Shown in pieces: positions 139 to 47,511 of a DNA stretch of 48,194 nt. The stretch covers positions 1 through 48,194 of IMG/VR virus record IMGVR_UViG_3300020045_007472. One strand, written 5' to 3'. The first letter of the stretch is position 1. Each line of letters begins with the position of its first letter. The stretch comes from a virus (taxonomy: Duplodnaviria > Caudoviricetes). A program made the translations under genes and the position numbers. The notes beneath the pieces are model-generated. The model was not told the DNA's origin. It saw only the letters and a list, made by a program, of their open reading frames with translations, and did no database searches.

Positions 139-810
139 TTAGATATCGCCGAGCAAGTCATCCAAGTCGCTAGGAAGCGCCGCGCTTGCTGCCGCACGAC
201 GTGCCAACTCTTCTCGCGCCTCGGCCATGAAGTCGCGCGCCTTGCTTTCGGCTTGTGCGCCAATCCAAGCGATGACTGCCTTATCGTCCCACGTTGGCCG
301 CGAGTCGTTCGACTTGAAGAACGCGGCGACTTTGGGCGACAATGCAACGAATGCGGCAGCAGTCGGCTTGGCTCCCGGCGATGCTTTCGCAAGCGCGGCA
401 ATGAAGCGTGCTTTCAGTGCATCCTTGGCAATGTCTACCGCAAGCGATTGCTCGTCGGTCATCTTGGTCGAGGTGCCACCGGCAACCCGCACTTGCCACT
501 GCCCGGCAACCATAGCATCCCAAGCCTTTTGCATCGCCGCGAGTATGCCGTCGTTGACGGTCTTTTGGTTCGCGGCAACCCAGTCGGTCAACTGGTCGCG
601 CGAAGGCTTGGGCGTCCCTTCCGGTTTGCTTGCCATGTAGCAGGCGAAAGGAACACTCGCGGCGCTATCGGCCAGCTTTTGCTTAATCCCGTGCGGGATA
701 AGCTGGCGAAGTATGTCATGCGGCAAGTCAGCCACGTTGACTGTCAAGGCCACATCGCGCGACTCCACCACAATCGCGAGCTTCGGCATTTCGATTTGGA
801 ACGTTTCCAT
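139..810 (-). CDS. Early hypothetical protein, 223 aa (copy A of the duplicated gene)
   Basis: ATG with GGAGTCC RBS; differences from copy B are almost all synonymous, which confirms it is coding. Confidence 0.9.
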   Translation of the reverse strand: METFQIEMPKLAIVVESRDVALTVNVADLPHDILRQLIPHGIKQKLADSAASVPFACYMASKPEGTPKPSRDQLTDWVAANQKTVNDGILAAMQKAWDAMVAGQWQVRVAGGTSTKMTDEQSLAVDIAKDALKARFIAALAKASPGAKPTAAAFVALSPKVAAFFKSNDSRPTWDDKAVIAWIGAQAESKARDFMAEAREELARRAAASAALPSDLDDLLGDI

Positions 811-2246: not shown

Positions 2247-2579
2247 AATGGGTCCTGACTACTGGGGATTTCGGCGTTTTCGCAAAGTTGGTCGTCTATG
2301 CACTTTCGTATGGCTCGTTACATCGTGTAATGGTATGGCTCACACTGACGTTTTTCTTTTGTAAAGGGAGTTTTTTTTTTTTTTTTTATTTAAATTCTCT
2401 GAAAGAAAAACACGCAAGCGACCGAGGTTGCGGTATGGTCGGTTACATCGTGTAATGAGCCATACGAAACCATGCAAACGGGGTCGCGGCGAAAATCGGC
2501 CAAATCCCCAGTCGCCAGCGCTATGCGCCAGTAACACTTGCTTAGACGCCACCCGTAGGCGCAAGCGTCAGGACCCATT
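2247..2579. repeat. Large imperfect inverted repeat around an AT-rich core with a T17 run; candidate replication origin
   Basis: Paired blocks 2247-2259/2567-2579 (13 bp perfect), 2261-2271/2502-2512 and about 2304-2322/2451-2469; T17 at 2371-2387. Confidence 0.65.
2433..2465. promoter_or_regulatory. 33-bp palindromic operator-like site GTATGG-N4-TTACA-N3-TGTAA-N4-CCATAC
   Basis: Exact consensus; a partial copy lies at 2308-2330. Confidence 0.7.
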
Positions 2580-3260: not shown

Positions 3261-3360
3261 GCATCCCATCGACAGTTGAGCGCGCCGTCAGCAGCAGCAT
3301 CGCCGCGATAGCGGGCGCTCAATCTCCGTGGAATGTCCCACGATAACTGGAGTCCAAGAA

Positions 3361-7930: not shown

Positions 7931-7954
7931 ATAGCTTCAACAAGGAGTCCCATC

Positions 7955-8185
7955 ATGGCACGTTCCACCCCAGTTGTCGGCACCTTCACTGGTGAAGAGC
8001 TAGAAGTTAGCTTCTACGCTTTCCGCGAGCACCATCCAGAGGGTGACCTTATCCTCGACATCGACCTTCAGGACGTCACTCTTCTCGGCCACCTCATCCC
8101 GGATATCAAGGTCCTGCCAGAAGCTTTGCAAGCTTCCATCATCGCCCTCGCTGACGACATCGAAACCTGGATGGGACGCTGCTGA
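7955..8185 (+). CDS. Hypothetical acidic protein, 76 aa
   Basis: AAGGAGTCC RBS. Confidence 0.75.
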   Translation: MARSTPVVGTFTGEELEVSFYAFREHHPEGDLILDIDLQDVTLLGHLIPDIKVLPEALQASIIALADDIETWMGRC

Positions 8186-8343
8186 TGGACCTTAGCAACG
8201 CCAGCCCTGAAGCAATTTGTCGCGCTTTCGCCTACGCCTTGGTTCGCGAGCACGGCGACGATGCCTCTCGTCTTGCCGATATTGTAGTGGCGGAGGTGCA
8301 AAAAGAAATGAGAGCCATCGCCCTGGAAAGGACTAAGCCATGA
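8185..8343 (+). CDS. Hypothetical protein, 52 aa (MDLSNASPEA...)
   Basis: TGATG and ATGA couplings fill the gap exactly. Confidence 0.5.
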   Translation: MDLSNASPEAICRAFAYALVREHGDDASRLADIVVAEVQKEMRAIALERTKP

Positions 8344-8834
8344 CCAACTACATCGGCTGGACGCCGCCGCCAGGCGTCGGAGTTGTCGCGCCCCCCGTCC
8401 ATTTCGAGACGATTGTGGATGTGATCTACAGCGACGGCTTGTTTAGCGGCGGAACCAAGGGGCTTCCCGGTGAACGTGCTGGCGACCTGAACTGGTCCGC
8501 CGTTGGCGACGGCCCGGCCATTGTCGCCTATGCGATTGTGGAGGAATACAAGCCCGCGCCGGAGTTGCGGGAGTGGTTCGCGCTTATCCGCTACGGGTCT
8601 CTTGTCGCTTCGTCGCAAAGCCGGGAGGACTTCTGCCAGATCAAGGACGGCGAAGAAATCATCCACGTCCGAGAGGTTCTGCCCGCCGCGCGTGAGGTGG
8701 TCGCGTGGGCGGTGGTGGGCGTTGACGGCAAGCCCTTTGCGCTTTGGATATCAGAGGACGCAGCCGGAGGTTTTGTCGCGGAGCAAGGCGGCGGCACGGT
8801 GGTCAGGCTGTCGGGGGTGATGCCAAATGAGTGA
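8340..8834 (+). CDS. Hypothetical protein, 164 aa
   Basis: AAGGA RBS; coupled ORF. Confidence 0.7.
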   Translation: MTNYIGWTPPPGVGVVAPPVHFETIVDVIYSDGLFSGGTKGLPGERAGDLNWSAVGDGPAIVAYAIVEEYKPAPELREWFALIRYGSLVASSQSREDFCQIKDGEEIIHVREVLPAAREVVAWAVVGVDGKPFALWISEDAAGGFVAEQGGGTVVRLSGVMPNE

Positions 8835-10496: not shown

Positions 10497-10574
10497 TATG
10501 GCTGCTTGCACTATGTAATCATCCATACCAAACTGCGCTACCCTCTTGACATCCCCCGCGCCATAGTCTAATGT
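10496..10574 (+). promoter_or_regulatory. 33-bp palindromic operator (10496-10528) followed by a sigma70 promoter
   Basis: ATATGG-CTGC-TTGCA-CTA-TGTAA-TCAT-CCATAC; TTGACA at 10546-10551, 17-bp spacer, TAATGT. Confidence 0.7.
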
Positions 10575-10643
10575 AATCCCACGGCCCCCGCGCCATCCAC
10601 CCGTTTCCCCCGCGCCATCCCGCGCATAACCCAAGGAGCTACA

Positions 10644-11183
10644 ATGTCCACGAAAGAGATCACCATCGCCGGTCAAACCTTCACGGTCCTCCAACCCTAC
10701 GCCGCAGGCCACGCGATCACCGAAGCGGAAGCCAAGGCCCTGAACCAGGTTCGCGCTGAGAACGTCCGCAACAACATGGCGAGCAAGGTAAAGGCCGCTG
10801 TCGAGGGCACAGCGAAAGAAGGCGAGCCGACCGCTGACACCATCGCCGCCGCTGTCGCAGCCTATGACGCCGCCTACATCTTCAACCTCGCTTCCGTCGG
10901 TGGCGGTAAGCGTCCGACCGATCCGGTCGAGGTCGAAGCACTCCGCATCGCCCGCGATCAGTTCGCCACCTTCGCCGCTTCCAAAAAGCTCACCGTCAAG
11001 GCGATCAAGGAAGCCAAGGGCGAAGACTGGTACCTCGAGAAGATCGCTGCGCTCGCCGAGCGTGATGATGTTGTCAAGGAGGCCAAGCGTCGGGTCAAGG
11101 CTCGCGAAGCTTCCGCTGAAAGCGCACTGGAGGGCCTGGACCTCGACGGCATCGCGCCGGTCGAAGCCGAGCCTGCGCACTAA
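10644..11183 (+). CDS. Ala/Lys/Glu-rich hypothetical protein, 179 aa, probably highly expressed and nucleic-acid-binding
   Basis: AAGGAG RBS, own promoter, downstream hairpin, strongly biased codons. Confidence 0.85.
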   Translation: MSTKEITIAGQTFTVLQPYAAGHAITEAEAKALNQVRAENVRNNMASKVKAAVEGTAKEGEPTADTIAAAVAAYDAAYIFNLASVGGGKRPTDPVEVEALRIARDQFATFAASKKLTVKAIKEAKGEDWYLEKIAALAERDDVVKEAKRRVKAREASAESALEGLDLDGIAPVEAEPAH

Positions 11184-11195
11184 CGAAGTATGGTT

Positions 11196-11224
11196 GGGGG
11201 CTTCGGCCCCCTTCCAGCCCTTCT
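11196..11224 (+). terminator. Hairpin GGGGGC-TTCG-GCCCCC (terminator or processing site)
   Basis: 6-bp GC stem with UUCG tetraloop and pyrimidine-rich tail. Confidence 0.55.
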
Positions 11225-11226
11225 AT

Positions 11227-11314
11227 GGTAGGTAGCCACGTCAACCCCCCTCACTTCCTCCCTGTTGTGACTGGCGTGCCCGCGGCGATTGGACTCCCCG
11301 CATTGCTACCTACC
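11227..11314 (+). ncRNA. Candidate structured RNA (three-way junction) with two anti-Shine-Dalgarno loops
   Basis: P1 GGTAGGTAGC/GCTACCTACC, P2 CACGTCA/TGGCGTG, P3 TCAC/GTGA with loop TTCCTCCCTGTT, P4 GCGG/CCGC with loop CGATTGGACTCC. Confidence 0.55.
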
Positions 11315-11331
11315 TTAAAAGGACTGGACCC

Positions 11332-11565
11332 ATGAACATGATGCCAAGCCCCGACCTAACCCACCTCCTCTTCCTCGCCAATGAGGCGGAGATCGGCATC
11401 GCTGTCATCACGAACAACCCGACCTTGCTACGCAACAAACTCTACGCAGAACGTAAGCGCTGCGGCCTGACCAACCTGACCTTCATCCAGCCCCCCACCG
11501 AGAGCGAGTCCCGCTTGTGGATCATCAAGAAAGAGGCCAAGGCACATGGCGCGACAGAAGACTGA
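11332..11565 (+). CDS. Hypothetical protein, 77 aa
   Basis: AAGGA RBS and typical codon usage. Confidence 0.75.
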   Translation: MNMMPSPDLTHLLFLANEAEIGIAVITNNPTLLRNKLYAERKRCGLTNLTFIQPPTESESRLWIIKKEAKAHGATED

Positions 11566-11737
11566 AGAGCTGAAGAAGCACACGCTTAACCTCCGCGAGG
11601 GTGACATGGAAGCCCTTGCCGAACTCTTCCCCAAGTTCCACCCCTCCGTCATGGTTCGCCGGATCGTCAGCAAATTCGTCGATCAGGTTAGCCACGTTCC
11701 AGAGGAAGACCTCGACCTCCCGCACATCGACCTTTAA
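11546..11737 (+). CDS. Possible ribbon-helix-helix DNA-binding protein, 63 aa
   Basis: KKHTLNLRE strand followed by two amphipathic helices (..SVMVRRIVSKFVD). Confidence 0.55.
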   Translation: MARQKTEELKKHTLNLREGDMEALAELFPKFHPSVMVRRIVSKFVDQVSHVPEEDLDLPHIDL

Positions 11738-11751
11738 CCCGGAGTCCAATC

Positions 11752-16367: not shown

Positions 16368-17384
16368 GTGACTATCCTTATCCTATCAGACCACCCCTCG
16401 CTCAACGAAGCGGGCAAGCCATTCTCCAACGGGTACTGGGGCTACTTCCGCGCCCAGCTTCGTCGCGCCGGTATCGACCCCGAGTCGTGCATCTGGATGA
16501 ACGTCTTCAACCAGCCCGCCTCCAGCTTCTTCGCCTTCACCCAGGAAAGCAAAAGCGGCGCGCTTACCGGCATCCCAGGTGTCGCCCGCAAAGCCTACCT
16601 CCGCGCTGAGTATGGCCCCGAACTCCACGCTCTCTACACCACCATCCGCCGCATCCAGCCAAACATCATCATCGCTTGCGGTGAGTTGGCGCTGCTTGCA
16701 GTAACCCACCAGACCAAACTCAAGTTCGCCCGTGGCCGCGTCACCACCTCCATCGCCACTTGCGGCACCCGAAAGGTCCTTCCTGTCCTCCACCCTCGCG
16801 CGGTCATGGCGGAGATCAAGCAGGAACCCATTCTACTCCTCGACCTCATGAAGGCCAAGCGCCAAGCAGCCTTTTCCGAGGTTCAGCGCCCGCAGCGCTA
16901 CCTTCACCTCCGCCCCTCGATCGAGGACCTTGAGTCGTTCTGGCAGGATTACATCGAGCCTAGCTCTGGCCTGTCCATCGACATCGAAACCAAGAACCCC
17001 CTCATCACCTGCGTCGGCATATCCCCTTCGCCAGATCGCTGCCTCGTCGTCCCATTCTTTGACGGAGAGAAAGCCAGTGGCAACTACTGGGTCACGCCTC
17101 GCGAGGAAAAGATCGCCTGGCAGTTCGTCCGTCGCTGCCTTAACACCCCCGGCAAGCGCGTGTTCGGGCAGAACTTCCAATACGACACGCAGTACCTATG
17201 GCGCTACATGGGCATCCCCTGTTCCAGCTGGACCGACGACACCATGCTCATGCACCACGCAATCCAGATCGAGATGGACAAGGGACTTGGCTTCCTCGCC
17301 TCGATCTACTCCGAGGAACTCGCTTGGAAATTCATGCACCGCAGACGCGTCGCGGATCGCAGCAGTAAGAAGGAGGACGAATGA
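16368..17384 (+). CDS. N-terminal subunit of a split DNA polymerase: degenerate family-4 UDG-like domain plus partial 3'-5' exonuclease (ExoI, ExoII)
   Basis: E.GKPF, IQPNIIIACGELA and VLPVLHP (UDG fold); SIDIET, GQNFQYD and DDTMLMHH (DnaQ-like exonuclease). Confidence 0.8.
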   Translation: MTILILSDHPSLNEAGKPFSNGYWGYFRAQLRRAGIDPESCIWMNVFNQPASSFFAFTQESKSGALTGIPGVARKAYLRAEYGPELHALYTTIRRIQPNIIIACGELALLAVTHQTKLKFARGRVTTSIATCGTRKVLPVLHPRAVMAEIKQEPILLLDLMKAKRQAAFSEVQRPQRYLHLRPSIEDLESFWQDYIEPSSGLSIDIETKNPLITCVGISPSPDRCLVVPFFDGEKASGNYWVTPREEKIAWQFVRRCLNTPGKRVFGQNFQYDTQYLWRYMGIPCSSWTDDTMLMHHAIQIEMDKGLGFLASIYSEELAWKFMHRRRVADRSSKKEDE

Positions 17385-17817: not shown

Positions 17818-18158
17818 TTTACTTGGCTTCGCCTTTCTCCCACATCAACCCGGCCATCCGCCAGCATCGCTTCGAGCAGGCCCGTCGCTTCACGATTGAG
17901 GCCCTACGAGCAAACATCGCCCTCTTCTCCCCCATCGTCTACGGCATGGACATGGAGAAGGAGATCGGCACGAACTTCGAGCCGTGGCAGCAGCTCAATG
18001 ACGCCATGATCTCCGCATCAACCGAGGTCTGGTGCCTGTGTCTCGACGGCTGGAGCGATAGCCGCGGCGTTCGCCATGAGCTCGAGTTGGCCCACGAACT
18101 CGGTCGTCCCATACACTTCTACCGTTCATTCGGAGTCCGTATCAATGCTGGTGATTGA
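17805..18158 (+). CDS. DUF1937 / nucleoside 2-deoxyribosyltransferase-fold protein
   Basis: IYLASPFS...FSPI...LDGWSDSRGVRHELELAHELGRPI signature. Confidence 0.8.
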   Translation: MASLIYLASPFSHINPAIRQHRFEQARRFTIEALRANIALFSPIVYGMDMEKEIGTNFEPWQQLNDAMISASTEVWCLCLDGWSDSRGVRHELELAHELGRPIHFYRSFGVRINAGD

Positions 18159-19752
18159 CACAAAGGAACTCGACGAGAAAGCCGACAAGCTTTCAGACAG
18201 CGAGATCTATTGGACCTATTGCGCGCTTGACTGCTGCGTGACCTACGATGTCATCAAGGTTATCGAGCCGCAACTCGATGACGTTTCACGCGCCACCTAT
18301 CAGACCTCCATCGCCACTATCCCCGTCGTCCTCGAGATGATGCTGGAAGGCTTGCCTGTAGACCTCGCCGCTCGTCGCAAGTCCCTCGAGCACTACGAGG
18401 AAGTCTACGCGCAGCTCGAGTCCGGCTTTGTCCGCCTGTGCCACGAGGGCCTGGGCATTTCCCTCGACCGCTCCAAGCGCGACCGCGGACGCTCATCCGT
18501 CCCGATTAACGAAGCTTCGCCCAAGGACGTTCAGTACCTCTTCCACACCGTTCTCCAAATCCCGGAGAAGAAGAAGCGGAAGAAGGGCCAGGACGAGGCT
18601 AAGACCACTACCGACCGCGAAGTCCTCGAGGGTCTGCGCAGCTACTACTTCGCCGAGGTCTTCGTCAACTTCATCCTCGCTATGCGTGACGCGAAGAAAG
18701 CAATCGGCTTCCTCAAGACCAAGCTCGACGCAGACAACCACATCCGCTGTTCCTTCAACGTAGCCGGGACCACGACCGGGCGTCTCAACTCCAGCTTCTC
18801 CGACATGGGCACCGGCACCAACCTCCAAAACATATCCGGCAAGCAGAAGAATATCTTCGTCGCCGACGAGGGTTGGATGCTGGTAGACATCGACCTCGAA
18901 CAAGGAGACAGCCGTGGAGTCGGGGCCATCGCCTGGAATTGGTTTGTTGAGTCTCATGGAGAAGCTTGGGCCGGATCGTATCTCGATGCTTGCGAGTCTG
19001 GTGATCTACACACAACTGTCACAAAGATGGCCTGGACTAACCTCGGATGGGAAGCCGCCGCCGACGCCGGAGCACTACGCAAGATTGCTGAACAGCAGGC
19101 CTATAGAGAAAACAGTTACCGAGACCTTAGCAAGAAACTAGGCCACGGCACCAATTACCTCGGCCAACCTAACACGATGGCAATGCACTCCAAGCTTCCT
19201 GTCTCAACCATCGTTGACTTTCAGAAAAACTACTTCTCCGCTTTCGGCTGCATCAAAGCTTGGCAGGTCGAGACTATCCGTCAACTCCGCGAGACCCGCT
19301 GTCTCATCACCCCGTGGGGCCGTCGCCGCTTCTTCTGGAATGATCCCAATGCAGTCCCCACGCACAACGCCGCTATTGCCTACTCTCCTCAGTCAACCAC
19401 TGGTGAGTTCATCAACCGAGGCGCCATCGCTCTCCAGCGCTACAGAGACAGTCATCGTCTCCCTGTCCGGCTGCTGCTACAGGTTCACGACTCCCTCGTC
19501 CTCATGGTCAAACGCCGAGGGATTGAGGAAACTATTCCAACCATTCTAGAGCAGCTCCGCGTCGTGCTGCCGCTGGTAAAGGGCCGCGAGTTCACCATCC
19601 CTCACGGAGTTAAGGTAGGCTGGAACTACGGCATGGCCTCCCCCGACAACCCCTACGGACTATCGAAGTGGAAAGGTAGCGAGACGAGGGAGCCGCCTCG
19701 CCGCCTCACCACGATCGAGAACATAATGAACGCCCCGCTCGCCAAGAGATAA
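18145..19752 (+). CDS. Family A DNA polymerase, catalytic subunit (ExoIII motif plus polymerase domain)
   Basis: YCALD (ExoIII), TTTGRLNSS, NLQNI, motif A DLEQGDSR, motif B RDLSKKLGHGTNY, motif C QVHDSLV; GGAGTCC RBS before the ATG at 18145. Confidence 0.93.
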   Translation: MLVIDTKELDEKADKLSDSEIYWTYCALDCCVTYDVIKVIEPQLDDVSRATYQTSIATIPVVLEMMLEGLPVDLAARRKSLEHYEEVYAQLESGFVRLCHEGLGISLDRSKRDRGRSSVPINEASPKDVQYLFHTVLQIPEKKKRKKGQDEAKTTTDREVLEGLRSYYFAEVFVNFILAMRDAKKAIGFLKTKLDADNHIRCSFNVAGTTTGRLNSSFSDMGTGTNLQNISGKQKNIFVADEGWMLVDIDLEQGDSRGVGAIAWNWFVESHGEAWAGSYLDACESGDLHTTVTKMAWTNLGWEAAADAGALRKIAEQQAYRENSYRDLSKKLGHGTNYLGQPNTMAMHSKLPVSTIVDFQKNYFSAFGCIKAWQVETIRQLRETRCLITPWGRRRFFWNDPNAVPTHNAAIAYSPQSTTGEFINRGAIALQRYRDSHRLPVRLLLQVHDSLVLMVKRRGIEETIPTILEQLRVVLPLVKGREFTIPHGVKVGWNYGMASPDNPYGLSKWKGSETREPPRRLTTIENIMNAPLAKR

Positions 19753-42859: not shown

Positions 42860-45800
42860 TCACACGATGACCGTCTGGGCTTCGCTCCACGGGCCAACCA
42901 GCCCGTTGGTGCCGATCCAGCGCGTCATGACTTGGATGCCCGCCTTAGTCGGCGCGACGAGAGTGTAGTTGGCCCCGACCTCACCTGTCACATAGGTCCA
43001 CGGCGTTGCGCTCGCGTTCCGATAGGCGATGTCCCATTCTGTCGGCGTGGTGTGAGCCAACTTGGACGCTGACGGCGTGATGAGCAGATCGGCCCCGGCG
43101 TCAGCCACGGTCGGCTTTGCCCCGGCCAGCGGGGGCCATTCTTCACCGTTCCAGCCCCCAGAGGTGTCCAGGGCACCGATGCCCAGGGTTGCCACATCAC
43201 TGCCCACCTTGGGCGTGGCGTACTCCATGATCTGCTCTACGCTGACCGGCTCGCCAAGCCAGTCGAAGTCGTCAGTGACGTTGCCCCCGACCGGCATGAG
43301 GTTGTTTAGTTCTGTGATGATCAACGCATCTACTGTTCCGCCAGTGCCGGTAATGGTAGTGGCGCTGGACGGGAGAAGGTAAGTGTTTTGCACGACGTGC
43401 TCCCCCACCCCCTTGCCACTTACCCCTAGCCGCATCTGGCACGAACTCAGGTCAGAGGGGATGATGGTGTTATTGGCGACAACGCAATACCACGATTGGG
43501 CCAACTGGAGGCCCCACGGGCTACCACGATTGCTCAGGATGTTCTGAAAGAGTACGCAGCGGTCTGTCCCAGCGTTAGAAAAGAAGCCTTGCAGCACGTC
43601 GCCACGGATCGGCTCACTGCGCGCACAGACATTGCGAGCGATCAGAGCATTGTAGATTGTGCCGCTGACGATTTGCATGAAGTCATTATGCGGCGCGAGG
43701 TTCGTCAGCTCTCCCGTTTCTGGGTCAATGTATGCCATCTCGTTGTTGATGGCGAAGAAGCTTTCCGCCGTGTTGTCGGCGATGATCTTCGCCTCGCCAT
43801 TGTCGGGGGTGCTAGTAGCGGTGGGGCCAACAAACCTGTAGCAATCAAAGTAGATGTTGCGCGCCGAGTTGCGGCGGAAGATGAAGGCTCCCCGCACATG
43901 GAAACTGCCAACCTGCCGCATGTTGGTGAAGGTGCAGTCCTCGACTACGGTATCCCACATATTACTAGTCGATAGCCCAAGCCCCTGATGCAGGATACCA
44001 GTGTATCCATCCGGCCATTGCACTGGGTCTTGCAGCGCGCTCTCAGGAACCTCCGGCCCTTCACAGTCACAGAACTGCATCGTGAAGTTGCGGGTGCCAA
44101 CGCCTGTGCTCTTGCCTGCGATCAGGAACTTTTCCGTCAATGGGTTAGGTCCCTGAACGATGGACTTGAAGTTCCTCATCACCAGATAGGCCGTGTCGTA
44201 GATTAGCGATGTCGTGTTGATCGCGTAAGGTTTCCGCACCTGGCCGGGGTGCTTGTCCATCGTGCGGACAGTGCCGGACGTGTAAATCCGGCGGTGCAGG
44301 ATGCCGTTTCCGGTGGGTGTGGATGATCCCGGCCCGCGACCAAGGTCGTAAAGCCGGGGCCGCAGGAAGATGGTGCGAGGGCCTGCTGCCGCAGTTGCCA
44401 GTGCCGTGGCAAGTTCAGCAGCGTTCGCCACAGACCACGCATTTGCCACTGTGGAAATCGTCACCACGGTGTTGCCCACTGCCGTCGAGACGGTCAGGGA
44501 TTTGGTGTCGTCCACATCCGGCGTTCCGTTCGCCACCAGTCCACCAGAGACGATAGACCATGTGCGGGTCATGCCTACCTGACTGACAATCCCGGTCAGT
44601 TCAATCTCATCGCCCGCCGTCGTTTCAGGTTTCCATGACCCAGCCCCGGCAACTGTGAGCGCGCCGAAATAGGCCGTGGCATTCGCTGCGGAAAGGGTTG
44701 TAGGCGTGGCGGATTTCGTGGCCTCGGCACCATCGCCGACCGAGTTGACCGCCCTGATCTGCACGTTCGCCAGCGTCGTCGCTGGGACGGTAATATCCAG
44801 CGAAGTCGGGGTTGTTCCGATGCTGGTCCAGCCCCCGGCGTTGATCTGGTATTGAACATCCGTGAGGGCCGAGCCGCCATCTGCGGGCGGAACCGTAAAG
44901 GCCAGCGTCAGCTTGTCTCCAGCCGCCGAAGGCTTGTCCACCAGCGACCAGTCGCTAGGCCCAAATGCCAGAGGAACAACGGAAACCGCCCCGGTCGTGG
45001 CGCTTGTCGGCGTGGTGCCAGTGCCATTCCCGTTGGTGTTGACCGCCCGGATGGAGACCGTGAAGGCCGTTGTCGGAACGCCCGTGCTGATGACGCGCTG
45101 CCCAAGGCCCAAGCCGCCAGTGAGCGTCATCCATGTCCCGCCGTTCAGTTGGTATTCATAGCGCTCCACAGGACGGCCAGCACCATCAGCCAGCCCGGTG
45201 ATGTCTACATAGATTTCGCCCTGCCCCGCGCCTTGCGAATAGGAAACCACGGGCGCGCCGGGGATGGACGAGGCAAGGAAGAACTCGCCCGCTGGTGTCA
45301 CGAAATAGGCGTTGGCCGGCACCAGCGTTTCCCGCAGGCCAATCCGCACATAAACAGTCGTTCTGCCGTCTGGGCCGGTGCCGACTGTCGCCTGCCCGGT
45401 TGAAGTCCAGGCCCAAGTGTCGCCAACCAGCGTCGGGGTGGCCACGGTCGAAATAACGCCGTCCGGGGCTGTCCCGCGATAGATAACCCACTCGTAATCG
45501 GCTGGCGGGTCGTCATAGATTTCGACGTAGGTCTTCCGGGTATCTACATCCGCCACGGCCTCTTGGTAAATATATTCCCCGGAAGTGAGCGTGCCGTCGC
45601 CACCATCGGCAGGGATGAACAGCGAGTTTGTGGCGGCAATGACTGCGGAAGGATCAGACCCGTTAACGCCTTGCGCCTGCTTGGCTGCCGTGATGGTTTT
45701 GCCGCGATCGCCGGAAACCACGGTGTAGGTTTCAGTCGTCGCCACCTCTACGCCATCAGCATACCACCAGTAATTGAAGTCATCCGCCCCGGTCCAGCCG

Positions 45801-46024
45801 TCGCCGATCATAGAGAGCACCTCGCTCACATCTGGCGTTCCGTCGATTTCCGGCGCGACAACGTTGTAAGGTGGGATGACGACAGAGGCACCAGCCGAGG
45901 TATTCCAGACCCTAGCGCGAACGGTGGCCCCTGGGTTTCCAAGCCCGTCAACGTCAAAGGGCAACGCGCCTTCGCCGTCCTGAAACGTTCCGGCAGTCGT
46001 GTCGGTTACGCGAAACTTCGGCAT
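42860..46024 (-). CDS. Multidomain surface protein (Ig-like and FN3 repeats plus right-handed beta-helix), putative polysaccharide depolymerase, 1054 aa
   Basis: Two FN3-type repeats (DG.G.....Y(E/Q)YQ.N.G.W...IRAVN..G.G); beta-helix cap VANAAELATAL...TIFLRP; HNDFMQ; start taken at ATG 46024. Confidence 0.75.
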   Translation of the reverse strand: MPKFRVTDTTAGTFQDGEGALPFDVDGLGNPGATVRARVWNTSAGASVVIPPYNVVAPEIDGTPDVSEVLSMIGDGWTGADDFNYWWYADGVEVATTETYTVVSGDRGKTITAAKQAQGVNGSDPSAVIAATNSLFIPADGGDGTLTSGEYIYQEAVADVDTRKTYVEIYDDPPADYEWVIYRGTAPDGVISTVATPTLVGDTWAWTSTGQATVGTGPDGRTTVYVRIGLRETLVPANAYFVTPAGEFFLASSIPGAPVVSYSQGAGQGEIYVDITGLADGAGRPVERYEYQLNGGTWMTLTGGLGLGQRVISTGVPTTAFTVSIRAVNTNGNGTGTTPTSATTGAVSVVPLAFGPSDWSLVDKPSAAGDKLTLAFTVPPADGGSALTDVQYQINAGGWTSIGTTPTSLDITVPATTLANVQIRAVNSVGDGAEATKSATPTTLSAANATAYFGALTVAGAGSWKPETTAGDEIELTGIVSQVGMTRTWSIVSGGLVANGTPDVDDTKSLTVSTAVGNTVVTISTVANAWSVANAAELATALATAAAGPRTIFLRPRLYDLGRGPGSSTPTGNGILHRRIYTSGTVRTMDKHPGQVRKPYAINTTSLIYDTAYLVMRNFKSIVQGPNPLTEKFLIAGKSTGVGTRNFTMQFCDCEGPEVPESALQDPVQWPDGYTGILHQGLGLSTSNMWDTVVEDCTFTNMRQVGSFHVRGAFIFRRNSARNIYFDCYRFVGPTATSTPDNGEAKIIADNTAESFFAINNEMAYIDPETGELTNLAPHNDFMQIVSGTIYNALIARNVCARSEPIRGDVLQGFFSNAGTDRCVLFQNILSNRGSPWGLQLAQSWYCVVANNTIIPSDLSSCQMRLGVSGKGVGEHVVQNTYLLPSSATTITGTGGTVDALIITELNNLMPVGGNVTDDFDWLGEPVSVEQIMEYATPKVGSDVATLGIGALDTSGGWNGEEWPPLAGAKPTVADAGADLLITPSASKLAHTTPTEWDIAYRNASATPWTYVTGEVGANYTLVAPTKAGIQVMTRWIGTNGLVGPWSEAQTVIV

Positions 46025-46026
46025 GT

Positions 46027-47511
46027 TTATGGCCCCGGTGCTGTGGCGTCGATTGCGACGGCATAATAAAGGATTTGGCTGTTCACGCCGCTGGTCCGTA
46101 CCATCGGGCCAGCAGATGTGAAGGCTAGGGCAGACCCGTGGACGTAGGTCGTCCAACTGCCACCCTCGCCCGCCCCGTCCAGCCATGACCGGGCGCGAAC
46201 GTTTACGCCGTCCACCTGGAAGCGGACCCAAACCAGATCATTATCGGAGTAGGTTCCGACGATGGAACTGATGTTGGTGTTGGAGCCTGGGTCGCCTACG
46301 CCTTGCGCGTATAGCCGTTGATCTGCGGCCCCAACGCGCTGCCAGTAAGCGCCGGTGTGCTGGTTAGACGCTGCAAAATGCCCGAAGCCGGTTCGCACGC
46401 TGGCGGTAGAAAGAAGCCGGAAGAGTATGAGTACTTCCACGACTTCTGTTGTTCGTCCAGCAAGCCACGCTGTCAGGGCGTCAGCGTCAGCCCAGCGATG
46501 CGTGGTCGTCGTGGATTGCCATTGGACCGCGACCCCGCTTGGGGCACTCGCATCCGTGACTACAGGCGTCGTGACACCCGTGCTGGAGCGAGAATACCGT
46601 GCATCAACTTCGGTCCAAGTGTTCCCGTTAGCCAGCCAATCCCATTCCTCTTGGAATGCGTAATAGCCCGTGGCGGTCACTGCCGGATCGCTGTCAACAA
46701 ACCCCGACTTGGATGCGACTTCGCTGACATAGTAGTCATCACCCAAGGCGACAGTGAACGTCGTTCCGACCAGCGCAGTGGTCGATCCGTTGATGGTCTT
46801 GGTTGCCGCTACGGTGACGCCGCCCTCATCCCATGTCGCAGGTGTGAGTGTAACCGTGGTGCCCGCCCGCGCCAGCGTGCCGACCGCCGTGACCATGATC
46901 TGTGTCGAACCTGGTGCTGCCGGATCAGCCGCAGCATATTCGAATGTGCGGTCGTTCGCCGCGCTGTCGGTCACTAGCACTGACAAGTCCACCACGTCGT
47001 CCTCAACTAGAACGTCAGTTCCGGCTGCTGCAACACCATTGATGGTCCAGCTTGGGGCAATGCTGACGATTGTGCCCTCAGTGCTGGCATAGGTGCCTTC
47101 CACATAGGAGTCCTCTGGAGTGTCACCTGCAGTGTAGGGGCCGAAGGTGGGTGCAATCGTCTCGGTGATTGCTCCGCCCGGCAACTCGATATCTGGTGAC
47201 GACGAAGAAAAGACGTAATAGTAAATCGTCAGGCTATCCCCCGGCGTGCCGAGGCTATCCAGCGGGACCGGCGGCGCAAGTTCCAGTTCCTCATCGGTCA
47301 AGAGCGTGTTGTTGACGACGCGATAGGTGCCTGCTGGCCCGAGAAGGACGCCGTCTTGGATAACGGGCGTGGACGGTGTGCCGACAACGGGGGCTGCATC
47401 AATCAACGTTCCCACAACAGTCCAGACCAAGCTTGACGGAGCCGGGAAAGGAACTGTTGGGATGGACGGAATAAGTATCCGTTGCTTGCGGTCTCGAGCC
47501 CAATCACGCAT
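46027..47511 (-). CDS. Thr/Val-rich Ig-like protein with a C-terminal beta-sandwich (lectin-like) domain, 494 aa
   Basis: Ig-like segments (WTING...LSVLVTDSA; VTLTPATWD) and C-terminal VWVRFQVDG..VRARSW.DG..E...W. Confidence 0.65.
   Translation of the reverse strand: MRDWARDRKQRILIPSIPTVPFPAPSSLVWTVVGTLIDAAPVVGTPSTPVIQDGVLLGPAGTYRVVNNTLLTDEELELAPPVPLDSLGTPGDSLTIYYYVFSSSSPDIELPGGAITETIAPTFGPYTAGDTPEDSYVEGTYASTEGTIVSIAPSWTINGVAAAGTDVLVEDDVVDLSVLVTDSAANDRTFEYAAADPAAPGSTQIMVTAVGTLARAGTTVTLTPATWDEGGVTVAATKTINGSTTALVGTTFTVALGDDYYVSEVASKSGFVDSDPAVTATGYYAFQEEWDWLANGNTWTEVDARYSRSSTGVTTPVVTDASAPSGVAVQWQSTTTTHRWADADALTAWLAGRTTEVVEVLILFRLLSTASVRTGFGHFAASNQHTGAYWQRVGAADQRLYAQGVGDPGSNTNISSIVGTYSDNDLVWVRFQVDGVNVRARSWLDGAGEGGSWTTYVHGSALAFTSAGPMVRTSGVNSQILYYAVAIDATAPGP

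Follow-up and report, generated by a model that had tools for sequence, protein, structure and literature searches.

Cluster K mycobacteriophages carry a phage-specific extended Shine-Dalgarno (SD) word, SAS, before non-structural genes, and those of its positions that are unable to pair with 16S rRNA are conserved (PMC3203893; this and the other published systems are compared here on the basis of extracts of the cited papers). SAS stands in one orientation, apart from a single opposite-orientation copy found off gene starts in four genomes; an RNA or protein partner was suggested, and the 2011 description, in the sections used here, left the word unexplained (PMC3203893). As an analogue with a different sequence, SAS is the closest published parallel for the tag described below, which recurs in ribosome-binding sites (RBSs) of a podovirus-like phage. 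The tag GGAGTCC is found at 8 of the 42 early or middle gene starts of this phage and at none of its 24 late starts, and there is one antisense intergenic copy, in an RNA loop. The phages differ and so do the words (13 nt in the mycobacteriophages, 7-9 nt here); in addition, the antisense copy here lies within one of the loops of a covarying RNA fold, and copy and tag have changed together.

In phage T4, too, early mRNAs are distinguished by an extended GGAG sequence around the SD (PMC3014915, in the part drawn on); the readers there, RegB and RegA, are proteins, whereas the reader predicted here is an RNA. Among RNAs, the cuckoo/CcsR/ar14 small RNAs (sRNAs) of Alphaproteobacteria consist of two to four adjacent hairpins, each with CCUCCUCCC; they often lie beside a DUF1127 gene and are matured by RNase E, and CcsR1-4 are cut from the 3' untranslated region (UTR) of a small-protein mRNA (PMC4615179; PMC8034643). 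Base-pairing sRNAs that act on phage genes include P22 sar, lambda OOP and 24B_1, the last derived from an 80-nt precursor (PMC12197685), and SviR, which is encoded by the satellite PLE (10.1101/2022.04.08.487710). As far as the extracts of these two sources go, such RNAs have one or a few targets, mostly as cis-antisense, or are satellite-encoded, and none is described as reading a shared tag across many RBSs of its own genome. An RNA of that kind was not found in the literature searched, which lay mostly outside the subscription journals.

The stretch of DNA analyzed here (the window) is an entire virus record of 48,194 bases. Podovirus-type head and tail genes occupy the - strand, and the + strand encodes a helicase, an exonuclease, a Sak4-like protein, a DNA polymerase and a primase. 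The capsid protein is ~49% identical to the capsids of BPP-1/phiV10-like phages, and the best cultured match of the exonuclease is Caulobacter phage Kuura (35%). The DNA polymerase is split (16368-17384 and 18145-19752), with a deoxyribosyltransferase-like gene between the two parts, and two genes adjoining the terminase, 42860-46156 (-) and 46027-47511 (-), encode proteins of 1098 and 494 aa that gave no PHROG or Pfam match. The word GAWTC is nearly absent from the window (1 copy versus 49 expected) and GASTC mildly reduced (59 versus 91); all 20 genomes in the count (the window and 19 related ones) show strong depletion of GAWTC, so GANTC-type sites are under selection, a pattern suggestive of GAWTC restriction or GANTC methylation in the host. 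We infer an alphaproteobacterial host from the exonuclease match to Kuura, the GAWTC avoidance and the look of a promoter at 10546, which resembles what we take to be the alphaproteobacterial consensus.

The features of the RNA element and its surroundings are as follows.

10546-10574, + strand: predicted sigma-70-type promoter, TTGACA-17-TAATGT, which would drive the gene 10644 transcript
10644-11183, + strand: gene 10644, 179 aa, with 856 homologues; the RNA lies in its 3' region
154-nt gap between gene 10644 and gene 11332, + strand: site of the element
11192-11219, + strand: hairpin 1 (GGGGGC-UUCG-GCCCCC), the UUCG hairpin itself at 11196-11211, extendable by GUUGG-CCAGC pairing
11214-11327, + strand: long covarying stem around both loops, its 18-24 pairs interrupted by a fixed 1x1 mismatch (11223/11318); a predicted substrate of the RNase III type
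11227-11314, + strand: three-way junction by folding; approximately the RNA that would be freed by a cut near the mismatch
11244-11266, + strand: loop 1 region, pyrimidine-rich and anti-SD-like (CUUCCUCCC), variable between relatives
11255-11266, + strand: loop 1, 12 nt (UUCCUCCCUGUU)
11286-11297, + strand: loop 2 (CGAUUGGACUCC), with the core UGGACUCC at 11290-11297, complement of GGAGUCCA
11318-11327, + strand: SD arm of gene 11332 (AAGGA); its partner within the long stem is 11214-11222

The preliminary description of this locus had proposed an 88-nt three-way junction closed by a 10-bp helix, with two 12-nt loops, behind a UUCG hairpin, and all of these are present. The + strand of 11227-11314 folds at -32.3 kcal/mol (z -3.91; none of 200 shuffles equals it) with a perfect 10-bp closing helix, and RNAfold puts one or two weak pairs within each 12-nt loop; the - strand of the same segment gives z -2.85. 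The helix does not end where that description placed its end: it extends past 11227 as far as 11214/11327, which makes the 88-nt element the upper part of a 114-nt structure behind gene 10644. An Rfam search of the window returned no match at gathering score, and none of four weaker matches lies over the element. The scan called no intrinsic terminator at hairpin 1, where the U-tract is weak.

Gene 10644 matched nothing in PHROG, Pfam, PDB sequences, the Atlas or Foldseek; its structure model is confident and helical (pLDDT 92, pTM 0.56), and hhalign did not support paralogy with gene E, which is introduced below (probability 3.6%). Read by eye, the promoter pattern TTGACW-N16-C-TAWNNT recurs in 8/8 close loci; a consensus promoter scan found none in the window, and the site at 10546 falls below its threshold. 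Around this promoter, CCCGCGCCAT occurs three times (10555-10628), with 16 matches at one mismatch, which is not above chance genome-wide, and CCCGCGCAATCCCGCGCA is kept in the gene 10644 leaders of five relatives (L001, L002, L005, L006 and L009). A GCAATC-C/A-C/T-GC hairpin stands before gene E in relatives; the leader repeats and this hairpin are possibly a shared binding site. Farther downstream, 11546-11737 encodes a 63-aa protein with conserved synteny, without a Pfam match and with a similar-looking gene in Kuura (047); it presumably resembles a ribbon-helix-helix regulator.

Relatives were collected by scanning viral, metagenome and genome collections for protein and pattern matches. 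These yielded 104 loci with the gene 10644 motif and, from them, 57 distinct downstream regions, chosen on the protein and not on the RNA. Twelve of the 57 are close loci, with 62-100% protein identity. Whole contigs were used for 20 genomes, and the other loci are fragments. Two metagenome-assembled (MAG) contigs from the genome collection offered no clue to the host, and a strict DNA pattern for the whole element retrieved only two loci, both already in the set. Among cultured phages, blastn and tblastn gave no match to the element region or gene 10644; a profile alone found Kuura_050, a gene 10644 homologue in Caulobacter phage Kuura (E 1e-8). In Kuura, the one cultured relative, the module of promoter, gene and structure is present, and the gap behind the homologue (L147 5290-5524) is structured (z -5.46), but neither an anti-RBS loop nor a loop/RBS match is clear there, and Kuura lacks a homologue of gene E. 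Elsewhere in Kuura, 730 nt at 8020-8757 are mostly non-coding and contain hairpin-like repeats (TGCCCT...CCAGAGGAGT, twice).

The 12 close loci share an architecture of hairpin 1, a long stem whose base CCAGYYYUU pairs with the SD of the next gene, and two loops, and the stem fold has z -4.3 to -7.5 in every one. The two arms of a stem pair best with each other in 11 of 12 rows, and the one exception involves a pair of near-identical loci; mean arm pairing is -38 kcal/mol for cognate arms and -20 for swapped ones, and the inner arms are ~50% identical. Since the MAFFT alignment was too poor for pair counting, pairs were counted by ungapped opposition of the arms, anchored on the 1x1 mismatch and leaving out L076, which is near-identical to L001. 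Counted in this way, the 11 positions above the mismatch are paired in 119 of 121 cells, with 54 changes on both sides distributed over 11/11 columns; the eight positions below it are paired in 86 of 88 cells; and the mismatch itself is unpaired in 11/11 loci. The structural covariation that the preliminary description proposed looking for is present by these counts. Despite the turnover of the stem, 11 of the 12 close loci keep the loop 2 core UGGACUCC unchanged, with an unpaired probability of 0.40-0.77. By this comparative pattern, the element is a real, conserved structured RNA element. The remaining close locus, L011, has, within 2530-2587, UUGGGCAUUCC in loop 2 and GGAGUGCCAAA in the RBS of its next gene, possibly a wobble partner; the L011 contig does not include gene E. 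A candidate explanation of the antisense motif as a relic of a minus-strand RBS was rejected: a start codon follows it in only 1/11 loci.

The base of the stem points to a role in cis as well. RNase III takes double-stranded stems of about two turns as substrates, and the stem has 18-24 pairs in 12/12 loci together with the fixed 1x1 mismatch. CCAG has two conserved partners, one on the side of hairpin 1 and one in the long stem, and in truncated transcripts it re-pairs upstream with P 0.75-1.0 in 12/12 cases. RNase III products would be recognizable by rnc-dependent ends with a 2-nt 3' overhang, as described in the extract of PMC10503654. In most folds the stem buries the SD of gene 11332, a burial missed by the preliminary description, which had named a cis leader for that gene as the alternative to an sRNA. 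Given this burial, the element probably has a cis role besides its proposed trans role.

The loops resemble those of cuckoo RNAs (PMC4615179; PMC8034643, in part) in being anti-SD pyrimidine loops on sequence-variable stems. Membership in the cuckoo/AbcR type, as suggested in the preliminary description, is not borne out: there is no Rfam match, exact CCUCCUCCC occurs in only 3 of the 57 regions, and no DUF1127 gene was found among the flanking proteins. In place of adjacent similar hairpins, the window and its close relatives have one long stem with two unlike loops (CUUCCUCCC in loop 1), and the conserved loop is a phage-specific word. The element would work like an anti-RBS sRNA while failing the cuckoo tests. 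Loop 1 has a CUCCC/UUCCC flavor in most close loci, with varying length and, in L009, no anti-SD; this variability lends no support to the action on host mRNAs that the preliminary description gave as possible for loop 1. Among the window starts loop 1 has no specific set of phage targets. Of the 57 homologous regions, 39 display CUCC or UCCU in an open loop that is enclosed by a stem (the other 18 failed this test); the same holds for 39 of 158 intergenic control regions and for 5 of 41 structured ones. Many distant relatives, read by eye, have adjacent hairpins that end in a U-tract, without the enclosing stem, which fits a 3'-UTR RNA.

The same region could instead be read on the - strand, as a decoy with the same GGAG motifs in its loops, if the tag were a binding or cleavage site for a protein of the RegA/RegB or CsrA kind. 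The - strand does fold well, and lower than the + strand in 7 of 12 close loci, and T4 RegB cleaves early SDs at GGAG, for which the consensus is extended on the 3' side (PMC3014915, in part). However, the promoter, the UUCG loop and the G-U pairs indicate the + strand (11 G-U versus 3 C-A oppositions), and the scan found no promoter-like site on the - strand, although it is a weak scan that missed the + strand promoter too. The specificity of such a protein would also have to shift in each lineage to follow words of 8-10 nt. We consider this explanation improbable.

Loop 2 had been described as the reverse complement of GGAGUCC at eight RBSs of the phage, with pairing extending to 9 nt at 2749 and 3349 and to 11 nt at 11741, and this description holds. 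The tagged RBSs, and the gene that is used for comparison below, are listed here.

56-62, - strand: tagged RBS of the gene starting at 50, loop 2 complement
139-810, - strand: gene E (the gene starting at 810), an early gene of 223 aa with 127 homologues
815-821, - strand: tagged RBS of gene E, which co-changes with the loop in distant relatives
1102-1108, - strand: tagged RBS of gene 1096, with the tag in 2/2 close orthologues
2749-2757, + strand: tagged RBS of gene 2761, the first gene past a promoter-like site at 2664; 9-nt pairing
3349-3357, + strand: tagged RBS of gene 3361; 9-nt pairing
7944-7950, + strand: tagged RBS of gene 7955, loop 2 complement
11741-11751, + strand: tagged RBS of gene 11752; 11-nt complement, ranked 1/66 and the best predicted target
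18132-18139, + strand: tagged RBS of the DNA polymerase A domain gene (start 18145), ranked 12/66

The raw count of GGAGTCC in the window is marginal: 15 copies versus 7.67 expected, a number reached in 4 of 100 shuffles. Eight copies lie 11-13 nt before start codons, one forms loop 2 itself, and the remaining six are found elsewhere. When 66 hand-curated starts are ranked by pairing with loop 2, tagged starts take the first seven places and the last of the eight comes 12th; the pairings span 7-11 nt, with net energies of -4.3 to -9.8 kcal/mol for the top seven in a simple model. Across relatives, starts were called automatically wherever an ATG opening at least 35 codons had GGAG 8-15 nt before it; a few of these calls are probably false. 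In the 11 loop-bearing loci, 35 of 211 such starts carry GGAGTCC, compared with 52 of 2592 other GGAGs, a figure that includes the loops themselves; in the 46 loci without the loop, the tag is found at 17 of 586 starts. By gene family the proportions are 19/137 in loop-bearing loci and 17/377 in the others (P=6e-4, counting related phages as independent, as do all P-values below). The base after the tag is A in 26 of 35 cases, as the loop predicts. In L011, the close relative in which the loop motif is missing, none of 19 starts is tagged; L020 runs counter to the pattern, as 3 of its 18 starts are tagged and it has no matching loop.

Gene E offers a comparison in which loop and RBS have both changed. 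Its orthologues carry GGAGTCC in 4/4 close phages, and in six distant phages its RBS matches the phage's own downstream region through differing sequences: L016 (GGAGCCTA, 8 nt; 0 of 56 other regions as good), L013 (AGGAGAGTC, 9 nt; no other region equal), L089 (GGAGTCAA, 8 nt; four others equal), L048 (TAACGGAGAA, 10 nt; none equal), L014 (GAAAGGCCA, 9 nt; one equal) and, weakly, L044 (AACCCGA, 7 nt; 11 equal). The matches in L016, L013 and L089 were noticed by eye before the test, and those in L048, L014 and L044 were new. Matches of at least 8 nt occur in 5 of 7 orthologues (P=0.00081, or 0.037 when multiplied by 46 families). Among the 46 window families scanned, gene E alone stands out of those with more than one testable orthologue, and one single-orthologue family has P=0.022. 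When every RBS of the distant group is considered, matches are in modest excess (12 in 373 versus 5.1 expected, P=0.006), and most families give no signal there. The co-variation of loop and RBS across phages, which the preliminary description proposed testing, is accordingly seen for gene E (n=7) and is absent from most families, gene 11752 among them. In the window, gene E is 10 kb from the element and on the opposite strand; a terminator-like hairpin stands behind its other copy, and the early + strand genes begin at a promoter-like site. Gene E is thus on another transcript, so the pairing would be between molecules and the action in trans.

The second copy of gene E (1325-1948, +) is an inverted, 5'-truncated duplicate of 139-762 (-), with 87% DNA identity over 624 nt and without an RBS. 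In the relative G001, gene 1096, gene E, the terminator, a poly-T tract and the early promoter are all on one strand; the gene E region of the window may be rearranged, and the second copy could have arisen by inversion, by duplication or through the joining of two strains in the assembly. Window positions 2270-2470, which lie between the terminator (1975) and the promoter (2664), form an AT-rich island with a long T run and repeated TTACATCGTGTAATG, possibly an origin or genome-end signal; a similar island is found in G001.

A site acting at the DNA level is suggested by the near-palindrome TGGA(G/C)TCCA, which contains GANTC and could be an operator, for example for gene 11546, or a methylation site, in keeping with the GAWTC depletion noted above. 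Yet the tag is enriched only at the SD position and in the sense orientation, its antisense copy lies in the loop of a covarying stem with G-U pairs, and the gene E matches of L016, L048 and L014 lack GANTC. We regard a DNA site as very unlikely.

The element might also act only in cis: the stem, as leader or as processing site, would control translation of gene 11332, and loop 2 would pair only with the RBS of gene 11752, 450 nt downstream on the same message. The buried SD and the two partners of CCAG fit this explanation, as does the fact that 11741 is the best match and GGAGTCC is kept in 8 of 9 close orthologues of gene 11752. However, it leaves unexplained the tags in 19 gene families, on the other strand or another transcript, and the distant relatives show co-change for gene E and none for gene 11752 (no own-region match, n=34, P=0.99). 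An exclusively cis function is rather unlikely, and the cis role probably adds to the trans role without replacing it. A self-brake, in which loops in the 3' region pair with the SD of the gene 10644 message itself, has a precedent in S. aureus icaR, which also has its anti-SD motif in the 3' region and pairs with its own mRNA (PMC3868564, in part). Here the gene 10644 RBS has no own-region complementarity (n=40, P=1) and lacks GGAGTCC in all 10 close loci, and we give a self-brake the slimmest chance, although generic 4-5-nt SD pairing of gene 10644 through loop 1 is conceivable.

The conserved structure exposes a conserved seed, and this seed is complementary to RBSs on other transcripts, as in trans-acting sRNAs. 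We put at about two in three the probability that the element is a trans-acting antisense RNA that regulates the phage's own tagged early genes; its expression and the repression are what we infer, and the covarying stem, the invariant loop, the tag enrichment and the loop/tag co-change are the parts established by sequence comparison. The RNA timer for tagged early genes proposed in the preliminary description is favored by the comparative tests (covariation, a tag enriched only where the loop is present, the co-change of gene E), with a single family carrying the co-change.

In the mechanism we propose, the host would recognize the sigma-70-type promoter at 10546 and produce a transcript carrying the element. 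A double-strand nuclease, for which RNase III is a guess, would cut the stem of 18-24 pairs near the fixed mismatch and release a two-loop RNA of 75-90 nt. The same cut would let CCAG re-pair into hairpin 1, shielding the upstream mRNA, and would expose the SD of gene 11332. Either the RNA so released or the message left uncut would then pair with the tagged RBSs of early and replication genes and block their translation, and early protein synthesis would fall as middle transcripts build up. The acting species could equally be the uncut mRNA, and loop 2 pairing might conceivably activate its targets instead of repressing them.

Tentatively, and with more doubt than confidence, we extend this to a family of uncultured podoviruses that would make the early-to-middle switch by a microRNA-like circuit: a host double-strand nuclease would excise a hairpin from a middle mRNA, the freed RNA would silence those genes of the same phage whose SD spacer holds a lineage-specific address, seed and address would be rewritten together in each lineage, and the same cut would switch on the downstream operon. 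If true, such a circuit would also explain the SAS tags of other phages, and for extended SD words such as SAS of the mycobacteriophages it provides a testable hypothesis, namely to inspect the lone antisense copy. Lineage-specific pairs of seed and tag could serve as orthogonal translation switches. For the phage itself, an RNA reading one co-evolving tag across numerous RBSs of its own genome would be a solution to early gene shut-off other than the proteins RegA and RegB of T4.
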